Origin: a virus
Taxonomy: Duplodnaviria > Caudoviricetes
IMG/VR virus record: IMGVR_UViG_3300025124_000038
Location: 1 to 24,720 of that record
Length of the DNA: 24,720 bases
Strand: one strand, 5' to 3'
Position numbers and translations under genes: made by a program. How positions within the stretch are numbered: the stretch's first letter is position 1; the number at the start of each line of letters is the position of its first letter. Of the stretch, positions 10,433 through 23,485 are shown piece by piece. Below the pieces are notes generated by a model, which was given only the letters and a program-made list of their open reading frames with translations, ran no database searches and was not told the origin of the DNA.

Positions 10433-10462
10433 TTGCTGTACTACAAACATTTGATATATAAT
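10433..10462 (+). promoter_or_regulatory. Sigma70-like promoter driving the structured RNA region
   Basis: TTGCTG (10433-10438), 18 nt spacer, perfect TATAAT (10457-10462). Confidence 0.6.
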
Positions 10463-10497
10463 TCTTTCCGTCAAGTGTTGCACCACACGACTACTTG

Positions 10498-10573
10498 AAG
10501 CCGTTTTCTCATGCGTTAGCCCGAAAGGGTTCCAGTGGTGCAACACTGGAGCGCAGCAGAAAACGGCTTTTTT
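10498..10573 (+). ncRNA. c4/CI-like antisense RNA cloverleaf, putative
   Basis: 12-bp closing stem AAGCCGTTTTCT/AGAAAACGGCTT plus U-tail; inner stem TGCGT/GCGCA; hairpins GCCC-GAAA-GGGT and TCCAGTG-GTGCAA-CACTGGA; 10535-10547 is the exact complement of 10474-10486. Confidence 0.55.
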
Positions 10574-10997
10574 GCTTTTCGATTGCGCCACTTGACCGTC
10601 AGGGCGCGTTAGCACATCGGGCAGCAATCTCCCAGTACCCACCAAATGACACACCCAGAAGCAGTCCGCAGTCTGGTGATGTTGATGGACTTATCCCCTG
10701 TGACCCGCAGGTCGGAGTAGCGAAAGCGAAACGGATATAGACAACGCCGCAAGGCGATTAACCAGCCCCAGCAATGGGGAATGTGGAAGTCCCAACAGCA
10801 ATGCTGGGTGCCCGACCCGGGGGCCACCATCCTCCCGGCATCGACAAGTTCCAAGGTAGCGGAGCGCCAGCCCGAAAGCCCAACCGGGCGCTGGTTTGTC
10901 GTAAAGGAGCCTTTGCACCGCAAGCCACCGGACATCCGGGTAGGTAGGTTCAAAGGGTAAGTGGAAGTGCGCGTGTCGTTTTAACCAAAGGAAACCC

Positions 10998-11333
10998 ATG
11001 GAATCCTTGCAACCCATTGACCATCCGCTTGCGCACCTTTCACACACACGGGAGTCTTCCTACGGAAGTCTCCAACGCGCGCACGTAGTTCCTGCTTCGC
11101 AGGGACTTCACGGATGCGCACGACCCAAGGGTTGCACTGGCCTCGCCCCACTGACTTGTCTTCCCGCGCCCAGGCGACTGGATAGAAACGCGCGACCCTC
11201 GTTGCACACAAGCCCACACACGCCTTCGCACACACTCACGCATCGTGCCCACGCAGTCTCCGACTTGTGCATGCACCATGCGCATAGGTCATGCGCAAGC
11301 ACATCGCGCGAGGCCAAAACGCAATACCCCTAA
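10998..11333 (+). CDS. Doubtful ORF (111 aa) inside the structured region
   Basis: Leader TTAACCAAAGGAAACCCATG resembles the early-gene leaders, but the His/Pro/Arg-rich product looks non-globular and the DNA is hairpin-rich. Confidence 0.25.
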   Translation: MESLQPIDHPLAHLSHTRESSYGSLQRAHVVPASQGLHGCARPKGCTGLAPLTCLPAPRRLDRNARPSLHTSPHTPSHTLTHRAHAVSDLCMHHAHRSCASTSREAKTQYP

Positions 11334-11409
11334 AGTTTGCTCAAGTTTACAAAACACGCCGTTTTCATTGGTGAACTGCACACTTTTGTTGCCGTTTTAG
11401 CATGATGAC

Positions 11410-11439
11410 TTGACACAATGTTTGCTTTACGGCTACACT
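11410..11439 (+). promoter_or_regulatory. Sigma70-like early promoter
   Basis: Perfect TTGACA (11410-11415), 18 nt spacer, TACACT (11434-11439); upstream of the early gene cluster. Confidence 0.65.
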
Positions 11440-11716
11440 TCATCCCATCGAACGGCATCGTCCGGATCGCCAGACCAGCAAAAACGGTCACCAGCTCTGC
11501 ACTCGGAGCTAACCAAAATAAACGGGTGGCACTTAGACCTGATGCATGCCAATGCACAGCGAGTGGGCTGGGAGAAGGTAACTGCGCCACCGATTGAAGC
11601 CGCAGTGAGGGTTAGCCCCCAAGAAAAACAAAACCGCAGGCGTCCAGGGGGCGCCGCCAGTTCTCTGGTGCAAGTGTATGGATGTGCACTTACACCAGCG
11701 TATTACTTAACTAGCA

Positions 11717-11743
11717 GCCACCTCGTAACGGTGGCATTTTTTT
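11717..11743 (+). terminator. Terminator-like hairpin just before the first early gene
   Basis: GCCACC-(7 nt)-GGTGGC followed by ATTTTTTT. Confidence 0.6.
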
Positions 11744-11758
11744 AACCAGGAGAAAACC

Positions 11759-11923
11759 ATGACACGAAAACACTTTGAAGCTTTGGCTCATGAAATTTCG
11801 AAACTTCCGCTTGCTAGTGAGAGGTTAGCCGCAGCCTTTGCTGTGGTAACAGCCTGCAGCCAGTTCAATCTGGCGTTTGATCCGCAGCGTTTTTACAAGG
11901 CATGCCAAGTGACGGATATCTAA
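11759..11923 (+). CDS. Small early phage protein (54 aa)
   Basis: Below the ORF-track cutoff. AGGAGAAAACC-ATG leader; MTRKHFEALAHEISKLPLASERLAAAFAVVTACSQFNLAFDPQRFYKACQVTDI. Confidence 0.8.
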   Translation: MTRKHFEALAHEISKLPLASERLAAAFAVVTACSQFNLAFDPQRFYKACQVTDI

Positions 11924-11924
11924 C

Positions 11925-12143
11925 ATGCACGACCGCCACACCCCACCGCCCACCAACCTGCGGGTCATCGGCCACACACCTGGCAGCCAGCCGCTGCATG
12001 CTTGGGATGAGGGCGAGCGCAGCTTCGAGCAGCGCTACGAAAGATTCACCGCACAGTCAGGCATCAAGTACGGTGTCAGCCTAGTTTACGAAGTCACCGC
12101 CGAGCGCCGCCTGGCTGCGCTGCAGTCCAACCAAATCGCCTAA
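11925..12143 (+). CDS. Hypothetical protein (72 aa)
   Basis: Starts 1 nt after the upstream stop and fills the gap to the next leader. Confidence 0.6.
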   Translation: MHDRHTPPPTNLRVIGHTPGSQPLHAWDEGERSFEQRYERFTAQSGIKYGVSLVYEVTAERRLAALQSNQIA

Positions 12144-12176
12144 AGCAATGCGCTTAGTCTTAACCAGGAGAAAACC

Positions 12177-12536
12177 ATGAGCTCATATGCAAGACGGCTT
12201 GAAGAAGCGCTTGAAAAACAACACCAAATCAAAGGCGAAATTGAATTCTTGCGGCTTCTGATCAAGAAAGAGAAAAAACAGACGGCTTGGTGCAGCAAGT
12301 CGCCAGACATCAAGGAACTCAAGAAAATGATGCCAAACCACTGGATAGACAACTGTGCTGGGCTGACTTACTTCGGAGTCACCTTGGAATGCGATGAGCG
12401 CATCACTCTTCCAGATGGTTGGGTGCATTTTGATAACGAAGTATGCGACACCAGCACGCTGGCTTCCCCCGTGTGTAAAAAATACAAAAAACACGGCGTC
12501 CCCATCCATGTGTACATCAACCAAAAGGTGTGCTAA
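12177..12536 (+). CDS. Hypothetical protein (119 aa)
   Basis: Conserved leader TTAACCAGGAGAAAACCATG. Confidence 0.75.
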   Translation: MSSYARRLEEALEKQHQIKGEIEFLRLLIKKEKKQTAWCSKSPDIKELKKMMPNHWIDNCAGLTYFGVTLECDERITLPDGWVHFDNEVCDTSTLASPVCKKYKKHGVPIHVYINQKVC

Positions 12537-12613
12537 ACCATGGAGAAGGCAGGCTTTGTTAAACCCATTTTGGTTTAACTAGCGTGTTAAACATTCAGCA
12601 TAAACCGCAAAAC

Positions 12614-12640
12614 AAAGCCTCGCAAGTCGGGGCTTTTTCT
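12614..12640 (+). terminator. Terminator-like hairpin in early operon
   Basis: AAAGCCTCG-CAAGT-CGGGGCTTT followed by TTCT. Confidence 0.6.
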
Positions 12641-12663
12641 TGTGCTTTAACTAGGAGAAAACC

Positions 12664-12942
12664 ATGGTTCGATACGACCTACCGTTTGCTGGTGACAGCG
12701 GCGAATTTTATGTTCCAGAAACCAGGGCTTACTTCACTTTCCGACCAGCGTCTGATGAGTGGGCGGCCAAGCACGACCTCATCCATGCGATTGACGTGCT
12801 CGACGGTATCCGCTTTGGCATTGTCCGCAAGGGTGTTGCCTACATCGCTATAGATGAGGATGCTTATGGACACCCGGTGCTGGAACGCTGGAGCATCACA
12901 AAACGCGTCACATATCGGTCTAACAAGTGTTTTTTTAACTAA
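12664..12942 (+). CDS. Hypothetical protein (92 aa)
   Basis: Leader TTAACTAGGAGAAAACCATG. Confidence 0.75.
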   Translation: MVRYDLPFAGDSGEFYVPETRAYFTFRPASDEWAAKHDLIHAIDVLDGIRFGIVRKGVAYIAIDEDAYGHPVLERWSITKRVTYRSNKCFFN

Positions 12943-12951
12943 GGAAATGCA

Positions 12952-13107
12952 ATGTTTATCAGAGAACAAATGGCTCAGTGGAGAGAGTTGCGTCAAGCTT
13001 ATTGCGAAGGCGAATTTCTTGATTATTACGTCTGGTCTCCAGTTTCGTGCAGGCACTCTTGCTGGACGATGCAGCCAAACCGCTACGGAAAATTGCTGTG
13101 GATTTGA
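12952..13107 (+). CDS. Small hypothetical protein (51 aa)
   Basis: Not in the track. TTAACTAAGGAAATGCA-ATG leader; MFIREQMAQWRELRQAYCEGEFLDYYVWSPVSCRHSCWTMQPNRYGKLLWI. Confidence 0.5.
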   Translation: MFIREQMAQWRELRQAYCEGEFLDYYVWSPVSCRHSCWTMQPNRYGKLLWI

Positions 13108-13187
13108 TGAGCCATTGATAACGCTCGATATGGCTTGTACATACGCCAGTCGATATTTCGCCAAACAACTTCACCTAGGAGAAAACC

Positions 13188-13709
13188 ATGGGTTGGTCAT
13201 TTGCATGTTCACCGCGCCACGACAAAAAAGCTTGTGTGGCCGAGCTCACCCGGCCCGGACGTTACAGCCCTGGCTACACCATGCTGCGCCATAGCGTAGT
13301 TGGCAACCACCTCTGGACACTCATCAAGTGCCCGGACGGCCGCACCATCATCGGCCTGGACCTGTTGGCCGGAGGCGGCAAGCATGGCATGGGCTGGGGT
13401 TACAAGAGCATGGACGAAGAGTCTAGCCCTTTCGTCTACGACTGCCCTCTTTCATTCCTCGATGCGGCCAGCGAGCCCAGGGGCTACGCCATCGAATGGC
13501 GCCTCAAAGTCAGGGAACACCACGCCCGCAAAACCAGCCACAAAGCCTTCGCCGGATAGGTAGTCTCTTACGGCAGCGACACCTACACACTGGTCGCCCC
13601 GGCCGGTCCTCGCAAGGGCTGGACGGTCACCAACAGCAGCGGCTGCCGCTACCGCATGAATGTCAAACAACTCGCCCAGGCCACCTGGGTCAACACGGAG
13701 GTCGCATGA
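13188..13709 (+). pseudogene. DUF6927-like protein interrupted by an in-frame TAG at 13557-13559
   Basis: Leader CCTAGGAGAAAACCATG; MGW start and GWGYKSMDEES.PFVYDCP motif. The frame stays open 49 codons past the TAG and ends in an ATGA overlap with the next gene. Confidence 0.6.
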
Positions 13710-17882: not shown

Positions 17883-18053
17883 ATGACCCCAACCAAACTT
17901 AACCAGGTATTCCCCAGCTTCGAGGCAGTACATGTTGCCTCCAAAGAGGACGTCATTTTCATCCATCAGGGCGGTGCAACTATCACTATCCCATCCGCTT
18001 TGGTGGCGCAACTCATTGATGCGCTAGAGCTGGCGCACAGGGGCGACCTCTAG
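17883..18053 (+). CDS. Hypothetical protein (56 aa)
   Basis: MTPTKLNQVFPSFEAV...; stop overlaps the cI stop; weak RBS. Confidence 0.45.
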   Translation: MTPTKLNQVFPSFEAVHVASKEDVIFIHQGGATITIPSALVAQLIDALELAHRGDL

Positions 18054-18733
18054 CCAGCCCGCCAAAGCAAACGGCCCAGCACCCTGATCTCCTGTGTCTG
18101 CTCTGGCGAAAGCGCCTCCTCTGGGTAAGCCCGGTTGTCTGAGCGAATGAACAAGCCGCCGTCAAAGCGCTTGCTCAATCGTTTGATACGTGTCTCATCG
18201 CCATAGGCAATGGCATATACATCATTGTCTTTGATCTCAGACTGCCCTGTATCAATCAGCACCAAGTCTTTGTCCATCAGATAAGGCTCCATGGAGTCTC
18301 CGTGTACAGTCAGAACCCGCAGGTTTTTCTTGGCTGTTACACACTTCTGCTGCAACCAGTCGTGGCGAAAAGCCAGCGGCGGCAAGAGCAACTCTTGGCT
18401 CACCACACAGCCGTGGCCTGCTGACAAGCTCACCTCTATCCGGGGCACCAGCGCATACACCCCTGGCTGCAGATCATCCGGCACGCTCCAGGCCGATACC
18501 GCACTGGGCGCACCCTGATCACCGTCCAAGTAGTTGGTCGGCATACTCAGCGCCAGCTCTAATTTCCGGGCGGTCTTTTCACCAAAAAAGCGCTCCGGCT
18601 TAAACAGCAAACTCACATAGCTGCGGCTCAAGTCTGCCGCCGTTGCCACGTCCGTTTGCGTTTTTTTGTACTTGTGCATCCAGGCCGTCAGGTTTTCCCG
18701 ACGCCGCGCAGCCATTTCTTTTGACTTGTCCAT
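18050..18733 (-). CDS. CI-like repressor (XRE HTH + S24 autopeptidase; 227 aa)
   Basis: N-terminal HTH, Ala-Gly cleavage site LSAGHG, catalytic GDSMEP serine and RIKRL lysine; AAGGAG RBS. Confidence 0.9.
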   Translation of the reverse strand: MDKSKEMAARRRENLTAWMHKYKKTQTDVATAADLSRSYVSLLFKPERFFGEKTARKLELALSMPTNYLDGDQGAPSAVSAWSVPDDLQPGVYALVPRIEVSLSAGHGCVVSQELLLPPLAFRHDWLQQKCVTAKKNLRVLTVHGDSMEPYLMDKDLVLIDTGQSEIKDNDVYAIAYGDETRIKRLSKRFDGGLFIRSDNRAYPEEALSPEQTQEIRVLGRLLWRAG

Positions 18734-18790
18734 AAAGACTCCTTTTGTTTGCTTTACACTTGAGTAATTTCAAGCTTAAAGGCAAATTAC

Positions 18791-19042
18791 ATGCAAAACT
18801 TTTCGAACTGGCTCAAAAACAATCGCGGCATGGCCTCGCACCTGGCTCGTACCTTGGGGATCAGCCCCACCAACGTCACCAATGTGTGCACGGGACGCCT
18901 CCTCATGCCTACCGCATGGATGCCCACCATCGTCAAACTGTCAAAAAGGAAACTCTCCTATGCCACCCTGGTTACAGAGCGCGAAGGCCACCGCCGAGCA
19001 AAAGAACAAGCGCGGGCTAGATCAACATCTTCGCACAAATAG
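18791..19042 (+). CDS. Cro-like HTH protein (83 aa)
   Basis: Divergent from cI across 57 bp; SHLARTLGISPTNVTNV HTH. Confidence 0.75.
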   Translation: MQNFSNWLKNNRGMASHLARTLGISPTNVTNVCTGRLLMPTAWMPTIVKLSKRKLSYATLVTEREGHRRAKEQARARSTSSHK

Positions 19043-19108: not shown

Positions 19109-19957
19109 ATGCCAATACAGAAAATTTACACTTTAAAGCAACACCCACTTTCGGCCGCTTGGCCTGCCATGAGCGAACAGGAGTACCAGTCGCTCAAAGA
19201 CAGCATCGAGGTCATCGGGGTGCAAAACCCGATCACCCTGTTTGAAGGCATGGTCATCGATGGCTGGCACCGCTACCGTGCAGCAACCGGACTGGGCATG
19301 GATTGCCCATCAAAGGCGCTCGGCGACACTGACCCGGTTGACTTTGTCAAATCACAGAATGATGCCCGTCGTAACGTCACCGCCTCGCAGCGCGCCCTGG
19401 CCATCACCGCTATTTATGCCTGGCATCCAGTCGGTGCTAACAAATATTCAGGGAGGGTACCGGGTACCCTCCCTCAAAAAACCAATGCCGAGCTAGCCGC
19501 CATCGCAGGCACCAGCATCAAGACCATCAAACAAGCCAAGGTCGTGCACGCTGCCACGCCAGAGGTGCAAGACGCTGTACGCAACGGCACCCTCTCAGTC
19601 AAAAAAGGTGCGGCCACAGTCAAGCCGCCTGTCACCAAGCCGCCTGTCACTACGCCATCGGTCGAGCCCATAGTCAAAGAGCAAGAACCGCCCGAATACA
19701 GCGCACTCGACGACGCACTTGACCAGATTCAAGAACTGCAGTCCCGCCTTGCCATTGGCTTTATGGACGGCACACCTGAAGACAAAGCCCAGTCCAGTGA
19801 CCTCATCGCTTCACTGCGTGCCCAGGTTCGCTCGCTAGAGATCAACCTCGAGGCCGTCACCCGTTCGCGTGACCAGCTGCAAAACGAATGCGCAGCGCTC
19901 AAAAAGCAATGTGTCTCCCAGCAAAACAAACTCAAAAGGTTAAAAGATGGCCATTGA
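19109..19957 (+). CDS. ParB/Srx N-terminal domain protein with HTH and C-terminal coiled coil (282 aa)
   Basis: HPLSAAWPAM, LKDSIEVIGVQNPI, VIDGWHRYRA (GxxR box), SQNDARRNVT.SQRA, followed by an HTH-like TNAELAAIAGTSIKTIKQAK. Confidence 0.8.
   Translation: MPIQKIYTLKQHPLSAAWPAMSEQEYQSLKDSIEVIGVQNPITLFEGMVIDGWHRYRAATGLGMDCPSKALGDTDPVDFVKSQNDARRNVTASQRALAITAIYAWHPVGANKYSGRVPGTLPQKTNAELAAIAGTSIKTIKQAKVVHAATPEVQDAVRNGTLSVKKGAATVKPPVTKPPVTTPSVEPIVKEQEPPEYSALDDALDQIQELQSRLAIGFMDGTPEDKAQSSDLIASLRAQVRSLEINLEAVTRSRDQLQNECAALKKQCVSQQNKLKRLKDGH
19450..19475. repeat. Palindromic repeat, copy 3 (perfect 12-1-12 inverted repeat) inside the ParB-like gene
   Basis: AGGGAGGGTACC-G-GGTACCCTCCCT at 19450-19474; encodes GRVPGTLP. 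Confidence 0.95.
19621..19650 (+). repeat. 15-bp tandem duplication (CAAGCCGCCTGTCAC x2) in the ParB-like linker
   Basis: Exact direct repeat encoding KPPVT-KPPVT. Confidence 0.85.
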
Positions 19958-21437
19958 AGAACGCCAATACCAGCAAGACGCTATCGAGAGCCTGCGCCAA
20001 GGCTTTCGCGTAGGTCACCGTCGGCAAGTGCTGTCGGCCAGTACCGGCGCTGGCAAGAGCGTGATCATGCTGCAGATGATCAAGGCTGCCCAGGACAAGG
20101 GCTCCAAGATCGTTTTCATCTGCGAGCGCCGGGTGCTTGTCGAACAGTTTTCCAAACACCTCGACGCTGCCCGTATCGACCACGGGGTGCTGATGGCCAA
20201 GCACTGGCGCTTCCGCCCCGACGCCCAAGTCCAGGTGGCTACCGCGCAAACGCTTGAGCGCATGGAAACCTGGCCTGCGTTTGACATCTGCTTTGTGGAT
20301 GAAATACACGCATGCCTACGCACATCTCTAAAGCGCCTATTCAACAACCGTCCTGACCTGCGCGTCATCGGCGCTACCGCAACGCCTTTTCATCCTGAGA
20401 TGGGGCATTACTTTTCTGCCGTCACCTCGGTTATCACCATGAAAGAGCTGGTGGACAAAGGCTACCTGGTTCCCTATCGTGTCTTCATTGCCCACGAGAT
20501 CGACACCGCGGGCGTCAAAGTTGTTGCGGGCGAATGGCAAAAAGATGAGCTCGAAAAGCGCGGCCAACAGATCGTCGGGGACGTGGTTGCTGACTACATC
20601 CGTATCTCCAACGAAGTCTGGGGCGAACAACGTAAAACCATTTGCTTCTCTTGTGGCATTGCCCACGGTGCGGAGCTGGTGCGTAAGTTTGTCGAAGCTG
20701 GCATCAACGCAGTGCAAATATCCTCCAACGACGAGGACGAGTACCGCGCCGAGGTGCTGGCTGACTTTGCCAAACCAGACACCGACATCAAAGTCATCGT
20801 CTCGGTCGCCATCCTATCACGGGGTTTTGATCAGCCCGACGTTCACCACGTCATCCTGGCGCGTCCGCTCAAAAAGAGCTTCTCAGAGCACGTTCAGCAG
20901 ATGGGCCGGGTGGCTAGACCCTACCCAGGGAAAGCATTCGCCATCGTGCAAGATCATTCTGGCAACTACCTGCGGTTTCAGGCCTCTTTTGACAAGCTCT
21001 ACAACGAAGGCGTCAAAACCCTTGACGGAGAAGAAGACAAAAAGAGCCGAGAAGAACCCACTCCAAAAGAAAAAGAGGCGTCCAAGTGCCCGGCATGTGG
21101 ACACCTTTGGGGTGGCGCAGACGTTTGTACACACTGCGGCCATGTACGTACCCGGCGCAACGACGTTGTCTCTATTGCTGGGGTCATGAAAGAGATCACA
21201 GTCAGCAATGCCAAACCGCAAGTAGACCAGATCGACTGGTACGCCCAAGCCATTGGCTACGCCGAAGAACACGGCAAAAAGCCAGGCTTTGCCTACTACA
21301 AGTTTAAAGAAAAATTCAAGACAGACCCACCGGCTATCAAGCCTGCGCCCAAGTACCCGACGCCTGCTGTAGCGAACTGGTTCCGCTCACGGGCCATTGC
21401 CTACGCCAAGGGCATGGCCAAGGGGCGCATGCAATGA
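19947..21437 (+). CDS. SF2 DEAD/DEAH-box helicase with C-terminal zinc ribbon (496 aa)
   Basis: RQYQ Q-motif, STGAGKS, DEIH, TAT, LSRGFD, QQMGRVAR, CPAC...CTHC. Confidence 0.92.
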   Translation: MAIEERQYQQDAIESLRQGFRVGHRRQVLSASTGAGKSVIMLQMIKAAQDKGSKIVFICERRVLVEQFSKHLDAARIDHGVLMAKHWRFRPDAQVQVATAQTLERMETWPAFDICFVDEIHACLRTSLKRLFNNRPDLRVIGATATPFHPEMGHYFSAVTSVITMKELVDKGYLVPYRVFIAHEIDTAGVKVVAGEWQKDELEKRGQQIVGDVVADYIRISNEVWGEQRKTICFSCGIAHGAELVRKFVEAGINAVQISSNDEDEYRAEVLADFAKPDTDIKVIVSVAILSRGFDQPDVHHVILARPLKKSFSEHVQQMGRVARPYPGKAFAIVQDHSGNYLRFQASFDKLYNEGVKTLDGEEDKKSREEPTPKEKEASKCPACGHLWGGADVCTHCGHVRTRRNDVVSIAGVMKEITVSNAKPQVDQIDWYAQAIGYAEEHGKKPGFAYYKFKEKFKTDPPAIKPAPKYPTPAVANWFRSRAIAYAKGMAKGRMQ

Positions 21438-21503
21438 GTGCTCATCACAACAAAAACGACCCGTTTCGTCCTAGTTGCTGCCAATTTAATACCGAGAGGA
21501 TTT

Positions 21504-22562
21504 ATGCCCATCAAAGCCGATAAACACCTACGGGCGTACTACAACGAAATAGACCCAAATGCTGCGCAATGGTTGCGCAATTTGATGGATGAAGGATGGA
21601 TTACCAAGGGGGATATAGATGAACGAAGTATTGAAGACGTTCGGCCAAATGAGCTTGCTGGATATGACAGAACACACTTCTTTTCAGGAATCGGAGTTTG
21701 GGACTACGCACTTAACCAGGCAGGGTGGGGAAGCCGAAAAGTATGGACGGGAAGTTGCCCCTGCCAACCTTTCAGCGCGGCAGGCAAAGGAGCGGGGTTT
21801 GCTGATGAGCGGCATCTGTGGCCAGCCTTCAACCACCTCATCCAAGAGTGCCGCCCTGACATTGTCCTTGGCGAACAAGTTGCAAGCAAAGACGGCCTCT
21901 CTTGGCTCGACCTTGTACTCACTGACCTGGAAGCACAGGGCTACGCCGCAGGGGCGGTTGATACCTGCGCTGCGGGCTTCGGTGCGCCGCACATCCGTCA
22001 ACGACTTTACTGGGTGGGCAAAGCCAGCGGCACGGGATTGGCGCAGCGCATCAGGGACACCGGAATTGTTGGCGAGTCGGCTGAAGAACCCCAGAGAGAA
22101 GCCGTTGAGCGAACAAGCGTACACATTAGCGGGTTGGATGACACCAACAACGACAGATATACAAAGGACAAACCCAGAAGCTCACGAGAAGCGAAGGAAG
22201 TACAGGGAGTCCATTGGACGACAGAGTTTAGCGCCGGGGAATTTAGGGGAGCAGGTGGCGATTTATTCGGGTTGGCCGACACCAACAACGACAGATGCCA
22301 GCCGAGGTGTGAAAGAAGCAAGGCCGTGGGACACGGGAAAACCGCTAGGACAGATTGTTGCACTGATAGTACCAGCCCGACTAACGGTTTCTGGCGAGAT
22401 GCTGACTGGCTTGGATGCCGGGATGGTAAGTGGCGGCCAGTTGAACCCGGCACATTCCCGCTGGTTAATGGGACTGCCAGCAGATTGGTGCGCCTGCGCG
22501 CCTACGGAAACGCCATCAACGCTCCGGCGGCGCAAGCGTTTATTGAGTGTGTGATGCAATGA
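21504..22562 (+). CDS. C5 DNA cytosine methyltransferase, catalytic polypeptide (352 aa from ATG 21504)
   Basis: GAGAGGA RBS; [21 protein letters not shown] (catalytic PC), [14 protein letters not shown] and RLRAYGNAI motifs. Confidence 0.9.
21619..22554 (+). CDS. Nested alternative-frame polypeptide of the methyltransferase (beta-like; true start uncertain)
   Basis: 311 open codons fully inside the MTase gene in another frame; three GW.[KT]P...D repeats and [15 protein letters not shown] (motif IX-like). Confidence 0.65.
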
Positions 22563-23485
22563 AAGACATCGAATCTGCTCTTGCTTTCATTCCAGCTGAC
22601 GAGCGCAGTACCTGGGTTTCTATGGCGATGGCCGTCAAAAGCGAACTCGGTGACAGTGGTTATCCGATCTGGGATCAATGGTCGCAAACCGCGCACAACT
22701 ACAACGCCAGATCAGCCAAGGCCGTCTGGAAGTCATGCAAAGGAACTGGGCTGACCATCGCTACCCTGTTCCACGAGGCGCAGACCTGCGGCTGGAAGCG
22801 CACTGAGCCCTACACACCACCGAGCCAGGCGCAGATTGAAGCGCGCCGCCGAGACGTCGAGGCCAGGCAATCAATAGAAGGTCGTGAGCGCGCTAAAAGA
22901 GGTCAGCAAGCGGCGCAAAAGGCCGACTGGATACTGGGGCAGTGCCAGATGGAAACACATGCTTACCTGCAGTCCAAAGGCTGGCCTGAACTCAAAGGAC
23001 TGGTTTGGCGTCCTGATGAAGAAACCAACCTGCTGTGCATTCCAATGCTCATCAACGGCCAGTTGTCGAGCCTGCAAATGATCGACCGAAATGGAGCCAA
23101 GAAGTTTCTCACCGACGGCATCACTGCCAAGGCCGAGTTTCTGCTGGATGCCCATGGCACAGATTGGTGGGTTGAGGGGTGGGCTACTGGCTGGAGTCTC
23201 AAGCTCTGCCTGCAAGCGCTCAAGCTACCCTATCGCATTCATATTTGTTTCTCTGCGAACAACCTCAAGCGTCTGGCGCACAGCGGATTCGTCGCGGCCG
23301 ACAACGACACCAGCAAGACCGGCGAAAAGGCAGCCATCGACACCGGCTTGCCCTATTGGATAAGCGAAGTCGAAGGGGAGGACATCAACGATCTATACCG
23401 TCGAGTAGGACTTTTCAAGGCAAGCCAAATTCTTAGGAAATGGCTTCAGTCGCAAAGAGTAAACCAAGCCAACGGGAGCACCTAG
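22559..23485 (+). CDS. Primase-like protein, PriCT-2 + TOPRIM (308 aa from ATG 22559)
   Basis: IESALAFIPADERSTWVSMAMAVK...WDQWSQ (PriCT-2); SLQMI, VEGWATG, AADND and DIND (TOPRIM); ATGA overlap with the MTase stop. Confidence 0.85.
   Translation: MKDIESALAFIPADERSTWVSMAMAVKSELGDSGYPIWDQWSQTAHNYNARSAKAVWKSCKGTGLTIATLFHEAQTCGWKRTEPYTPPSQAQIEARRRDVEARQSIEGRERAKRGQQAAQKADWILGQCQMETHAYLQSKGWPELKGLVWRPDEETNLLCIPMLINGQLSSLQMIDRNGAKKFLTDGITAKAEFLLDAHGTDWWVEGWATGWSLKLCLQALKLPYRIHICFSANNLKRLAHSGFVAADNDTSKTGEKAAIDTGLPYWISEVEGEDINDLYRRVGLFKASQILRKWLQSQRVNQANGST

Follow-up and report, generated by a model that had tools for sequence, protein, structure and literature searches.

A self-complementary leader/loop RNA switch in a groundwater phage and its relatives: a probable trans-acting attenuator, possibly gating primer-type RNAs of replication origins

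In a tailed phage from aquifer (groundwater) metagenomes, we describe an RNA switch in which the leader site AGTGTTGCACCAC (10474-10486) is complementary, over its whole length, to GTGGTGCAACACT (10535-10547), a word exposed in the loop of a terminator-forming three-way junction downstream of it. Related RNAs, likewise three-way junctions ending in a terminator, form a family estimated at about 200 IMG/VR stretches in which, as judged by sequence comparison, loop and leader site change together. These switches are probably trans-acting attenuators. The fuller reading, according to which an attenuator tripped by its own short product gates a primer-type RNA at a replication origin, we consider to be close to evenly balanced, with a slight leaning in its favour.

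The stretch of DNA that was analysed, here called the window, is 24.7 kb in length and represents about 30% of the phage genome (CheckV estimate). The switch lies at the left end of a 1.3-kb gap separating two gene blocks: leftward from 10399 run head and terminase genes, a Q-like ORF and RusA, and the rightward block holds a cluster of small early ORFs with ArdA, an S24 repressor, a Cro-like ORF, a helicase, a methylase and a primase. Within the early cluster (10976-13191), a leader of approximately 21-25 nt with a strong ribosome-binding site is found in five to seven copies before the small ORFs; the cluster has its own promoter (11410-11439) and includes a histone-deacetylase-like gene in addition to ArdA. 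The S24 repressor (18050-19042) is transcribed head-on toward this cluster, unlike the lambda layout, while across the DNA methylase region two long open frames of one strand overlap (21438-22562 and 21619-22554) and possibly represent a frameshift pair. No replication initiator was found in the 24.7-kb window; phrog_270 had no match in G000 (estimated to be 30% complete), nor was a stand-alone initiator domain found in that portion. Neither an 81-aa ORF across the switch, which is taken as spurious, nor a 111-aa ORF at 10998 matched any family. Contigs of RNA runs span the switch and the neighbouring genes alike and are flat across the genes, these being assembled contigs only. The features on which the following account is based are:

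10433..10462, + strand: putative sigma-70 promoter with a weak -35 box (TTGCTG, 10433-10438), an 18-nt spacer and a -10 box (TATAAT, 10457-10462), from the sequence
10470..10488, + strand: leader with a conserved GTCAA word and the specificity site (10474-10486), able to fold as a small hairpin
10498..10569, + strand: three-way junction, from the fold and a stem alignment of 39 sequences
10535..10547, + strand: anti-leader word, exact complement of 10474-10486, from the sequence and family covariation
10568..10573, + strand: U-run closing the intrinsic terminator, from sequence and fold, conserved in alignments A1 and A4
10576..10990, + strand: downstream non-coding, hairpin-rich stretch (the putative gated RNA), with a shared first module at 10596-10613
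19947..23485, + strand: replication module of SF2 helicase, DNA methylase and primase, from Pfam and PHROGs

A preliminary description, made from the letters of this DNA, had noted a promoter, a leader hairpin, a cloverleaf with a U-tail and a perfect 13-nt upstream complement at this site, and these observations held. The 13-nt complement is far beyond chance: among perfect inverted repeats of the window whose arms lie 20-100 nt apart it is the longest, and none of eight first-order Markov copies of the window contained one of 13 nt. Folding of 10466-10580 yielded -48.8 kcal/mol (z -5.45; none of 200 shuffles was as stable) and returned the leader hairpin, the three-way junction at 10498-10569 and the U-run at 10568-10573. 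The basal stem P1 is the terminator stem and contains a conserved CA/G(C/T) internal loop, P2 (10518-10531) carries a GAAA tetraloop and P3 (10532-10549) bears the anti-leader loop, which the terminated fold leaves exposed. The TATAAT box is present and a -35/-10 pair is clear in relatives at the same distance from the switch, whereas the window's -35 box is weak and its promoter was not called by a consensus promoter scan. Transcription would start near 10468-10470.

Members of the family were collected using a stem-based pattern without the loop word, which listed 120 stretches, 59 of 100 distinct ones passing a filter for pairing and a U-tail; a tighter pattern recovered at least 120 of the estimated 200 stretches, and 118 of those listed, in addition to the window, passed the filter. 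An initial pattern scan was rejected, most of its 95 matches being chance inverted repeats. In 39 sequences P1 was 98.7% paired and 10 of its 18 pairs had changed on both sides, six invariant pairs being fixed by the search pattern itself. Some members possess an unpaired junction word instead of P3, and the switch is present as one copy per locus within the 10-kb flanks searched. In GTDB the pattern produced 108 matches, of which 11 passed the pairing filter (two of these looked coding) and only about nine are members, one from an isolate genome; 11 other matches, when inspected, were coding chance matches. BLAST of the locus against GenBank phages returned nothing, while for two relatives one search returned nothing and the other a partial match.

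The pairing between loop and upstream site that had been proposed for the window was substantiated among its homologues. At least seven Watson-Crick pairs were present in 46 of 47 cognate loop/leader pairs as compared to 6.3% of mismatched (non-cognate) pairs, and the longest match was 9.7 nt for cognate versus 4.9 nt for non-cognate combinations, a result reached in none of 10,000 permutations. Locus L178 has the two words exchanged, and at L100, the orthologous locus, the word pair is another one. The 37 specificity words are nearly orthogonal, given that 9 of 666 word pairs share 7 nt. Stepwise folding of the window's transcript gave a leader:loop probability of 0.86-1.0 up to position 10560, the terminator taking over by 10564; across the family, leader:loop pairing dominated before the terminator arm emerged in 79 of 79 cases and the terminator dominated at full length in 72 of 79. 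The predicted order of folding corresponds to the logic of a kinetic attenuator, and together with the covariation it supports the loop-leader switch previously suggested for the window. When the transcript takes the read-through fold, the released 3' strand base-pairs to the tail in 46 of 75 cases. A contact between the 5' end and a word beyond the U-run was weak (-7.6 versus -6.9 kcal/mol; 3 of 5,000 permutations) and is not relied on.

Based on these findings, we propose that in the nascent transcript the leader would pair with the P3 loop ahead of terminator formation, allowing the polymerase to read through, while the terminated RNA of about 105 nt would expose the same loop and capture the leader of new transcripts in trans. 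The terminator of a transcript captured in this manner would then form, resulting in negative feedback specific to phages that share the word. The pT181 attenuator (PMC3753616) offers one comparison. It reads through by default and terminates when induced by an antisense RNA, as is predicted here, but that RNA is a separate transcript and its target is a rep gene. Another comparison is with CI of satellite phage P4 and IsrK of Gifsy-1, where, according to PMC4825925, a short and a read-through form of one transcript exist and the short form acts on the long one in trans. The likeness to these two RNAs, the exposed loop and the diversity of words suggest trans action for the present family also. 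P4 CI acts by premature termination and controls replication genes; it differs, however, in being processed and in requiring seqA and seqC, and IsrK differs in that it switches translation on (same sections of PMC4825925). The switch family is unlike both in having no downstream site and in that its gated product is mostly non-coding RNA.

Concerning this product, the first gene behind the switch varies (short initiator, terminase, RecE, PAPS reductase, Tgt or HNH) and the invariable part is 200-400 nt of non-coding sequence. Of 94 members, 77 are followed by an RNA of one of four modelled classes, while the other 17 include Betaproteobacteria-1-like stretches, a fifth class, direct ORFs and the window. 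Class C has covarying helices with compensatory changes and many G-U pairs; for class B, RNAalifold yielded only five pairs from a poor alignment. As a group the elements did not exceed their shuffled versions in stability (mean z -0.24, n = 60). They are mildly G-rich (skew 0.11 versus 0.07 for genes), and third-position skew, which is uninformative as an origin test, revealed no clear switch at the element.

The stretch behind the switch in the window itself had no match to the modelled classes beyond the first module (10596-10613) and was not more stable than shuffles (z -0.61). In a sister phage it is swapped for another stretch, with boundaries at 10575, just after the U-run, and at about 11166, and both versions were found in RNA runs X19 and X20. 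Its relatives amounted to one chance match in viral contigs and, in metagenomes, to near-identical copies or the sister module only, and for this reason no covariation was obtainable for it. Side by side, the sister phages of this aquifer present an identical switch with two unrelated downstream modules, that of window positions 10576-11165 and that of L373, L526 and L529.

A number of individual arrangements were noted in or near the slot behind the switch. A PemK-like ORF replaces the element body in L375 (10063-10533) with both ends kept, a tRNA is inserted inside the element in L222 (1608-1673; = L325), and in L415 the element body is deleted before the short gene. The Rfam motif int-alpA is located just past the element in L191 (1906-1973) and L546 (1915-1987), and in L386 the first switch is directly followed, in tandem, by a second promoter and switch-like unit. 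Upstream of the short initiator gene, L573, L543, L549, L537 and L538 have other leader/loop/U-tail switch designs that are unmatched in Rfam. The fifth, unmodelled class of long structured element, recognised by one shared word, occurs in L553, L555, L556, L558, L563, L607, L612 and L383. The Rfam motif Betaproteobacteria-1 (RF02932) fills the element slot before short initiator-like genes in L190 (1575-1696), L535 (1035-1159) and L538 (1246-1375); it thus resembles the present elements in its position behind such switches, but constitutes one class of gated element and not a switch, and it found no match in the window's element.

Many members encode a protein of 115-120 aa which matches the C-terminal part of phrog_270 and which PHROGs names a replication initiation or primosomal protein. 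It aligns to residues 124-257 in 14 longer proteins (217-313 aa), of which one has an N-terminal DUF1376. Its structural model had a pLDDT of 69.7, and structure searches, in which a DnaD/DnaT-like helicase-loading domain was the candidate fold, yielded nothing clear (best Z 4.1; DnaD domain 3.1; SPP1 G39P 3.4). In lambda O, the N-terminal half binds DNA. Loci were fetched by the short protein alone, and in the best 80 of 396 there were 61 non-duplicate loci with at least 1.5 kb of upstream sequence; including three from a separate fetch, 64 of 64 scored loci have the short initiator as a stand-alone gene. An element was present in 58 of the 61 (52 upstream and 6 downstream), as opposed to 0 of 67 control loci with full-length DUF1376-type initiators in phages with shared neighbour genes, both being locus counts uncorrected for kinship and scored with class profiles for which this phage group had supplied part of the training set. 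Of the upstream elements 47 belong to a modelled class and five to the fifth class, scored by its one word, while the six downstream elements sit behind their own promoter and switch; one of the three loci without an element had only 6 nt of downstream flank. The family model of the switch matched 22 of the 61 stand-alone loci versus 0 of 39 control loci. On the protein tree (53 rows) the element class changes at least 18 times, even between identical proteins. At L320 the switch stands immediately in front of a full-length initiator, and there no element is present. In the relatives, a structured non-coding transcript with its own promoter is seen where the origin-binding initiator is missing.

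Since the RNA is present wherever the N-terminal half is missing, and on either side of the gene, a primer-type origin fits best, and the contrast between the two initiator types points to a ColE1-like, RNA-primed origin under antisense control. The read-through RNA would open the DNA and prime replication in the manner of ColE1 RNA II, replacing the origin-binding half of a lambda-O-like initiator, and the switch would set replication timing, copy number and the exclusion of kin. This priming role is a weaker proposal than capture in trans. According to PMC5043065, ColE1 needs no origin-binding initiator, its origin being opened and primed by RNA II; the lambda origin, by contrast, is part of the O gene, whose product binds it (section 8). 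The likeness to ColE1 RNA II/RNA I (PMC5043065) would comprise a non-coding RNA, transcribed from a promoter of its own, that stands in for an origin-binding initiator, and control by a small cloverleaf-like RNA with variable loops. The present family is unlike ColE1 in that the putative inhibitor comes from the same strand, as the 5' product of termination, with complementarity between leader and loop and no counter-transcript; control is predicted to occur at termination, the carriers are tailed phages with a stand-alone initiator C-domain, and priming is an assumption of the model. The window's element may be regarded as an origin by family analogy only, because its own stretch is unclassed, no short initiator is present in the 30% of the genome examined and a helicase-primase module is used. 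Such a module was found in the window phage, in 2 of 28 other carriers searched, and also in L302 and L018.

It is conceivable that the switch is indeed an antisense attenuator while the downstream RNA is a long leader which controls the genes behind it, through processive antitermination, processing or translation control, with no origin involved. In its favour, many elements stop at a ribosome-binding site or immediately ahead of a start codon, class A elements are often followed by terminase or other late genes, and the cassette stands at the start of operons for replication, recombination or late functions; in L320, L065 and L039 the switch directly precedes an ORF. Some carriers also encode full-length initiators, DUF1376 being encoded in 5 of 28 carriers and one carrier having a full-length phrog_270 match. 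A long leader does not, however, account for the six loci in which the cassette lies behind the short initiator gene, for L314, where only convergent genes follow the cassette, or for L300 and L323, where a new promoter follows, and it leaves the difference between 58 of 61 and 0 of 67 loci unexplained. We therefore consider this explanation unlikely, if still deserving of weight.

The preliminary description had assigned the switch to the c4/CI type and had suggested a second, RNA-based layer of immunity or attenuation, with further targets downstream and no recognisable icd or antirepressor gene behind it. In architecture the resemblance to P1/P7 c4 (RF01695; NC_005856; PMC5320573 and PMC12197685, in the parts cited) is genuine: a three-stem junction of about 75 nt lies inside its own leader, P2 bears a stable tetraloop, and a variable specificity loop, which falls into specificity groups, is complementary to an upstream site. 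Membership was not upheld. The window had nothing at the gathering score against Rfam, only chance matches occurring at E <= 10, and the C4 covariance model (RF01695) matched neither the window, nor sets of 18 and 19 related loci, nor five genomes (E <= 1), while P1, the positive control, scored 68.8 bits. The c4-2 model (RF02944) matched none of five genomes and appeared in no Rfam scan, where no positive control responded; c4-a1b1 had no match in the Rfam scans; and the model of the switch family did not match P1 c4. The family differs further from P1/P7 c4 in that the basal stem itself is an intrinsic terminator, one word covaries, and there is no downstream a2/b2 and no icd/ant gene; in P1, a2 and b2 follow directly behind c4 (NC_005856 annotation). 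The switch works like P1 c4 and P4 CI but is not a member of their kind, and the family is outside the Rfam catalogue. No description of it was found in the literature, although an unnamed entry may exist in the alignment files of Fremin and Kyrpides 2023 (PMC10690425, cited in part) or in the supplementary texts of Weinberg 2010/2017, which lay outside the search.

The loop-complementary words reported at 10913, 11131 and 11201 are present, and with four such 7-mers in 1 kb the window has the highest count among 52 members. Across the family, however, cognate words were not enriched downstream, either within 300 nt (5.11 versus 5.10 nt, n = 46) or within 1 kb (1.19 versus 1.23 6-mers, n = 52), and a sister variant is without two of the three named sites; as targets these words may serve in the window phage only, and are not a family feature. 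A strict immunity RNA, which would pair with upstream and downstream sites and silence an antirepressor or early operon in the lysogen, could call upon the shared three-stem topology, the S24 repressor of the window and these four 7-mers. It is difficult to reconcile with the Rfam results, the lack of downstream enrichment and the gene context: as had been stated for the window, no icd/ant-like gene was found, in this case in the gene context of 80 loci or in a PHROGs scan of the 100 commonest neighbour families. A tyrosine integrase was present in 1 of 12 near-complete carriers, as was an S24 repressor, which speaks against a general second immunity layer of temperate phages. We consider the strict immunity RNA improbable.

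It could also be argued that the pairing acts in cis only and serves as a kinetic timer, governed by the speed or pausing of the polymerase and needing no small RNA that acts in trans. Both folds and their order are fully explained in this way, but neither the presence of 37 nearly orthogonal words on a scaffold that does not vary nor the loop exposed in the terminated fold would be accounted for; cis pairing alone would not need such words, and their existence favours trans action, leaving the cis timer, to our minds, a very slim prospect. That the downstream RNA is a trans-acting scaffold on which the short initiator domain or host proteins assemble, the switch setting its amount, might agree with the conserved non-paired nucleotides, the tolerated insertions (the tRNA of L222/L325) and the varying position of the element relative to the short gene, but is scarcely credible given that at least five unrelated sequence classes serve identical or near-identical proteins, a situation hard to square with specific RNA-protein binding.

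With the attenuator gating a primer-type RNA as our preferred reading, we tentatively extend it, at a little short of even confidence, to the wider group: in a widespread set of freshwater and groundwater phages the DNA-binding half of the lambda-O-like initiator may have been replaced by interchangeable primer RNAs that open the origin, Betaproteobacteria-1 being one such primer, and a self-made attenuator with dozens of orthogonal words may count sibling genomes and set replication without repressor or integrase. Apart from the question of the origin, the family provides at least 37 natural, nearly orthogonal predicted antisense attenuators on one scaffold of approximately 105 nt, while the engineered antisense attenuator set described in the cited parts of PMC3753616 reached 7 x 7. 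If the extended proposal is correct, the orphan Rfam motif Betaproteobacteria-1 would gain a context, short orphan initiator genes would be halves completed by RNA, and phages would possess a protein-free route by which to sense their kin and time their replication.
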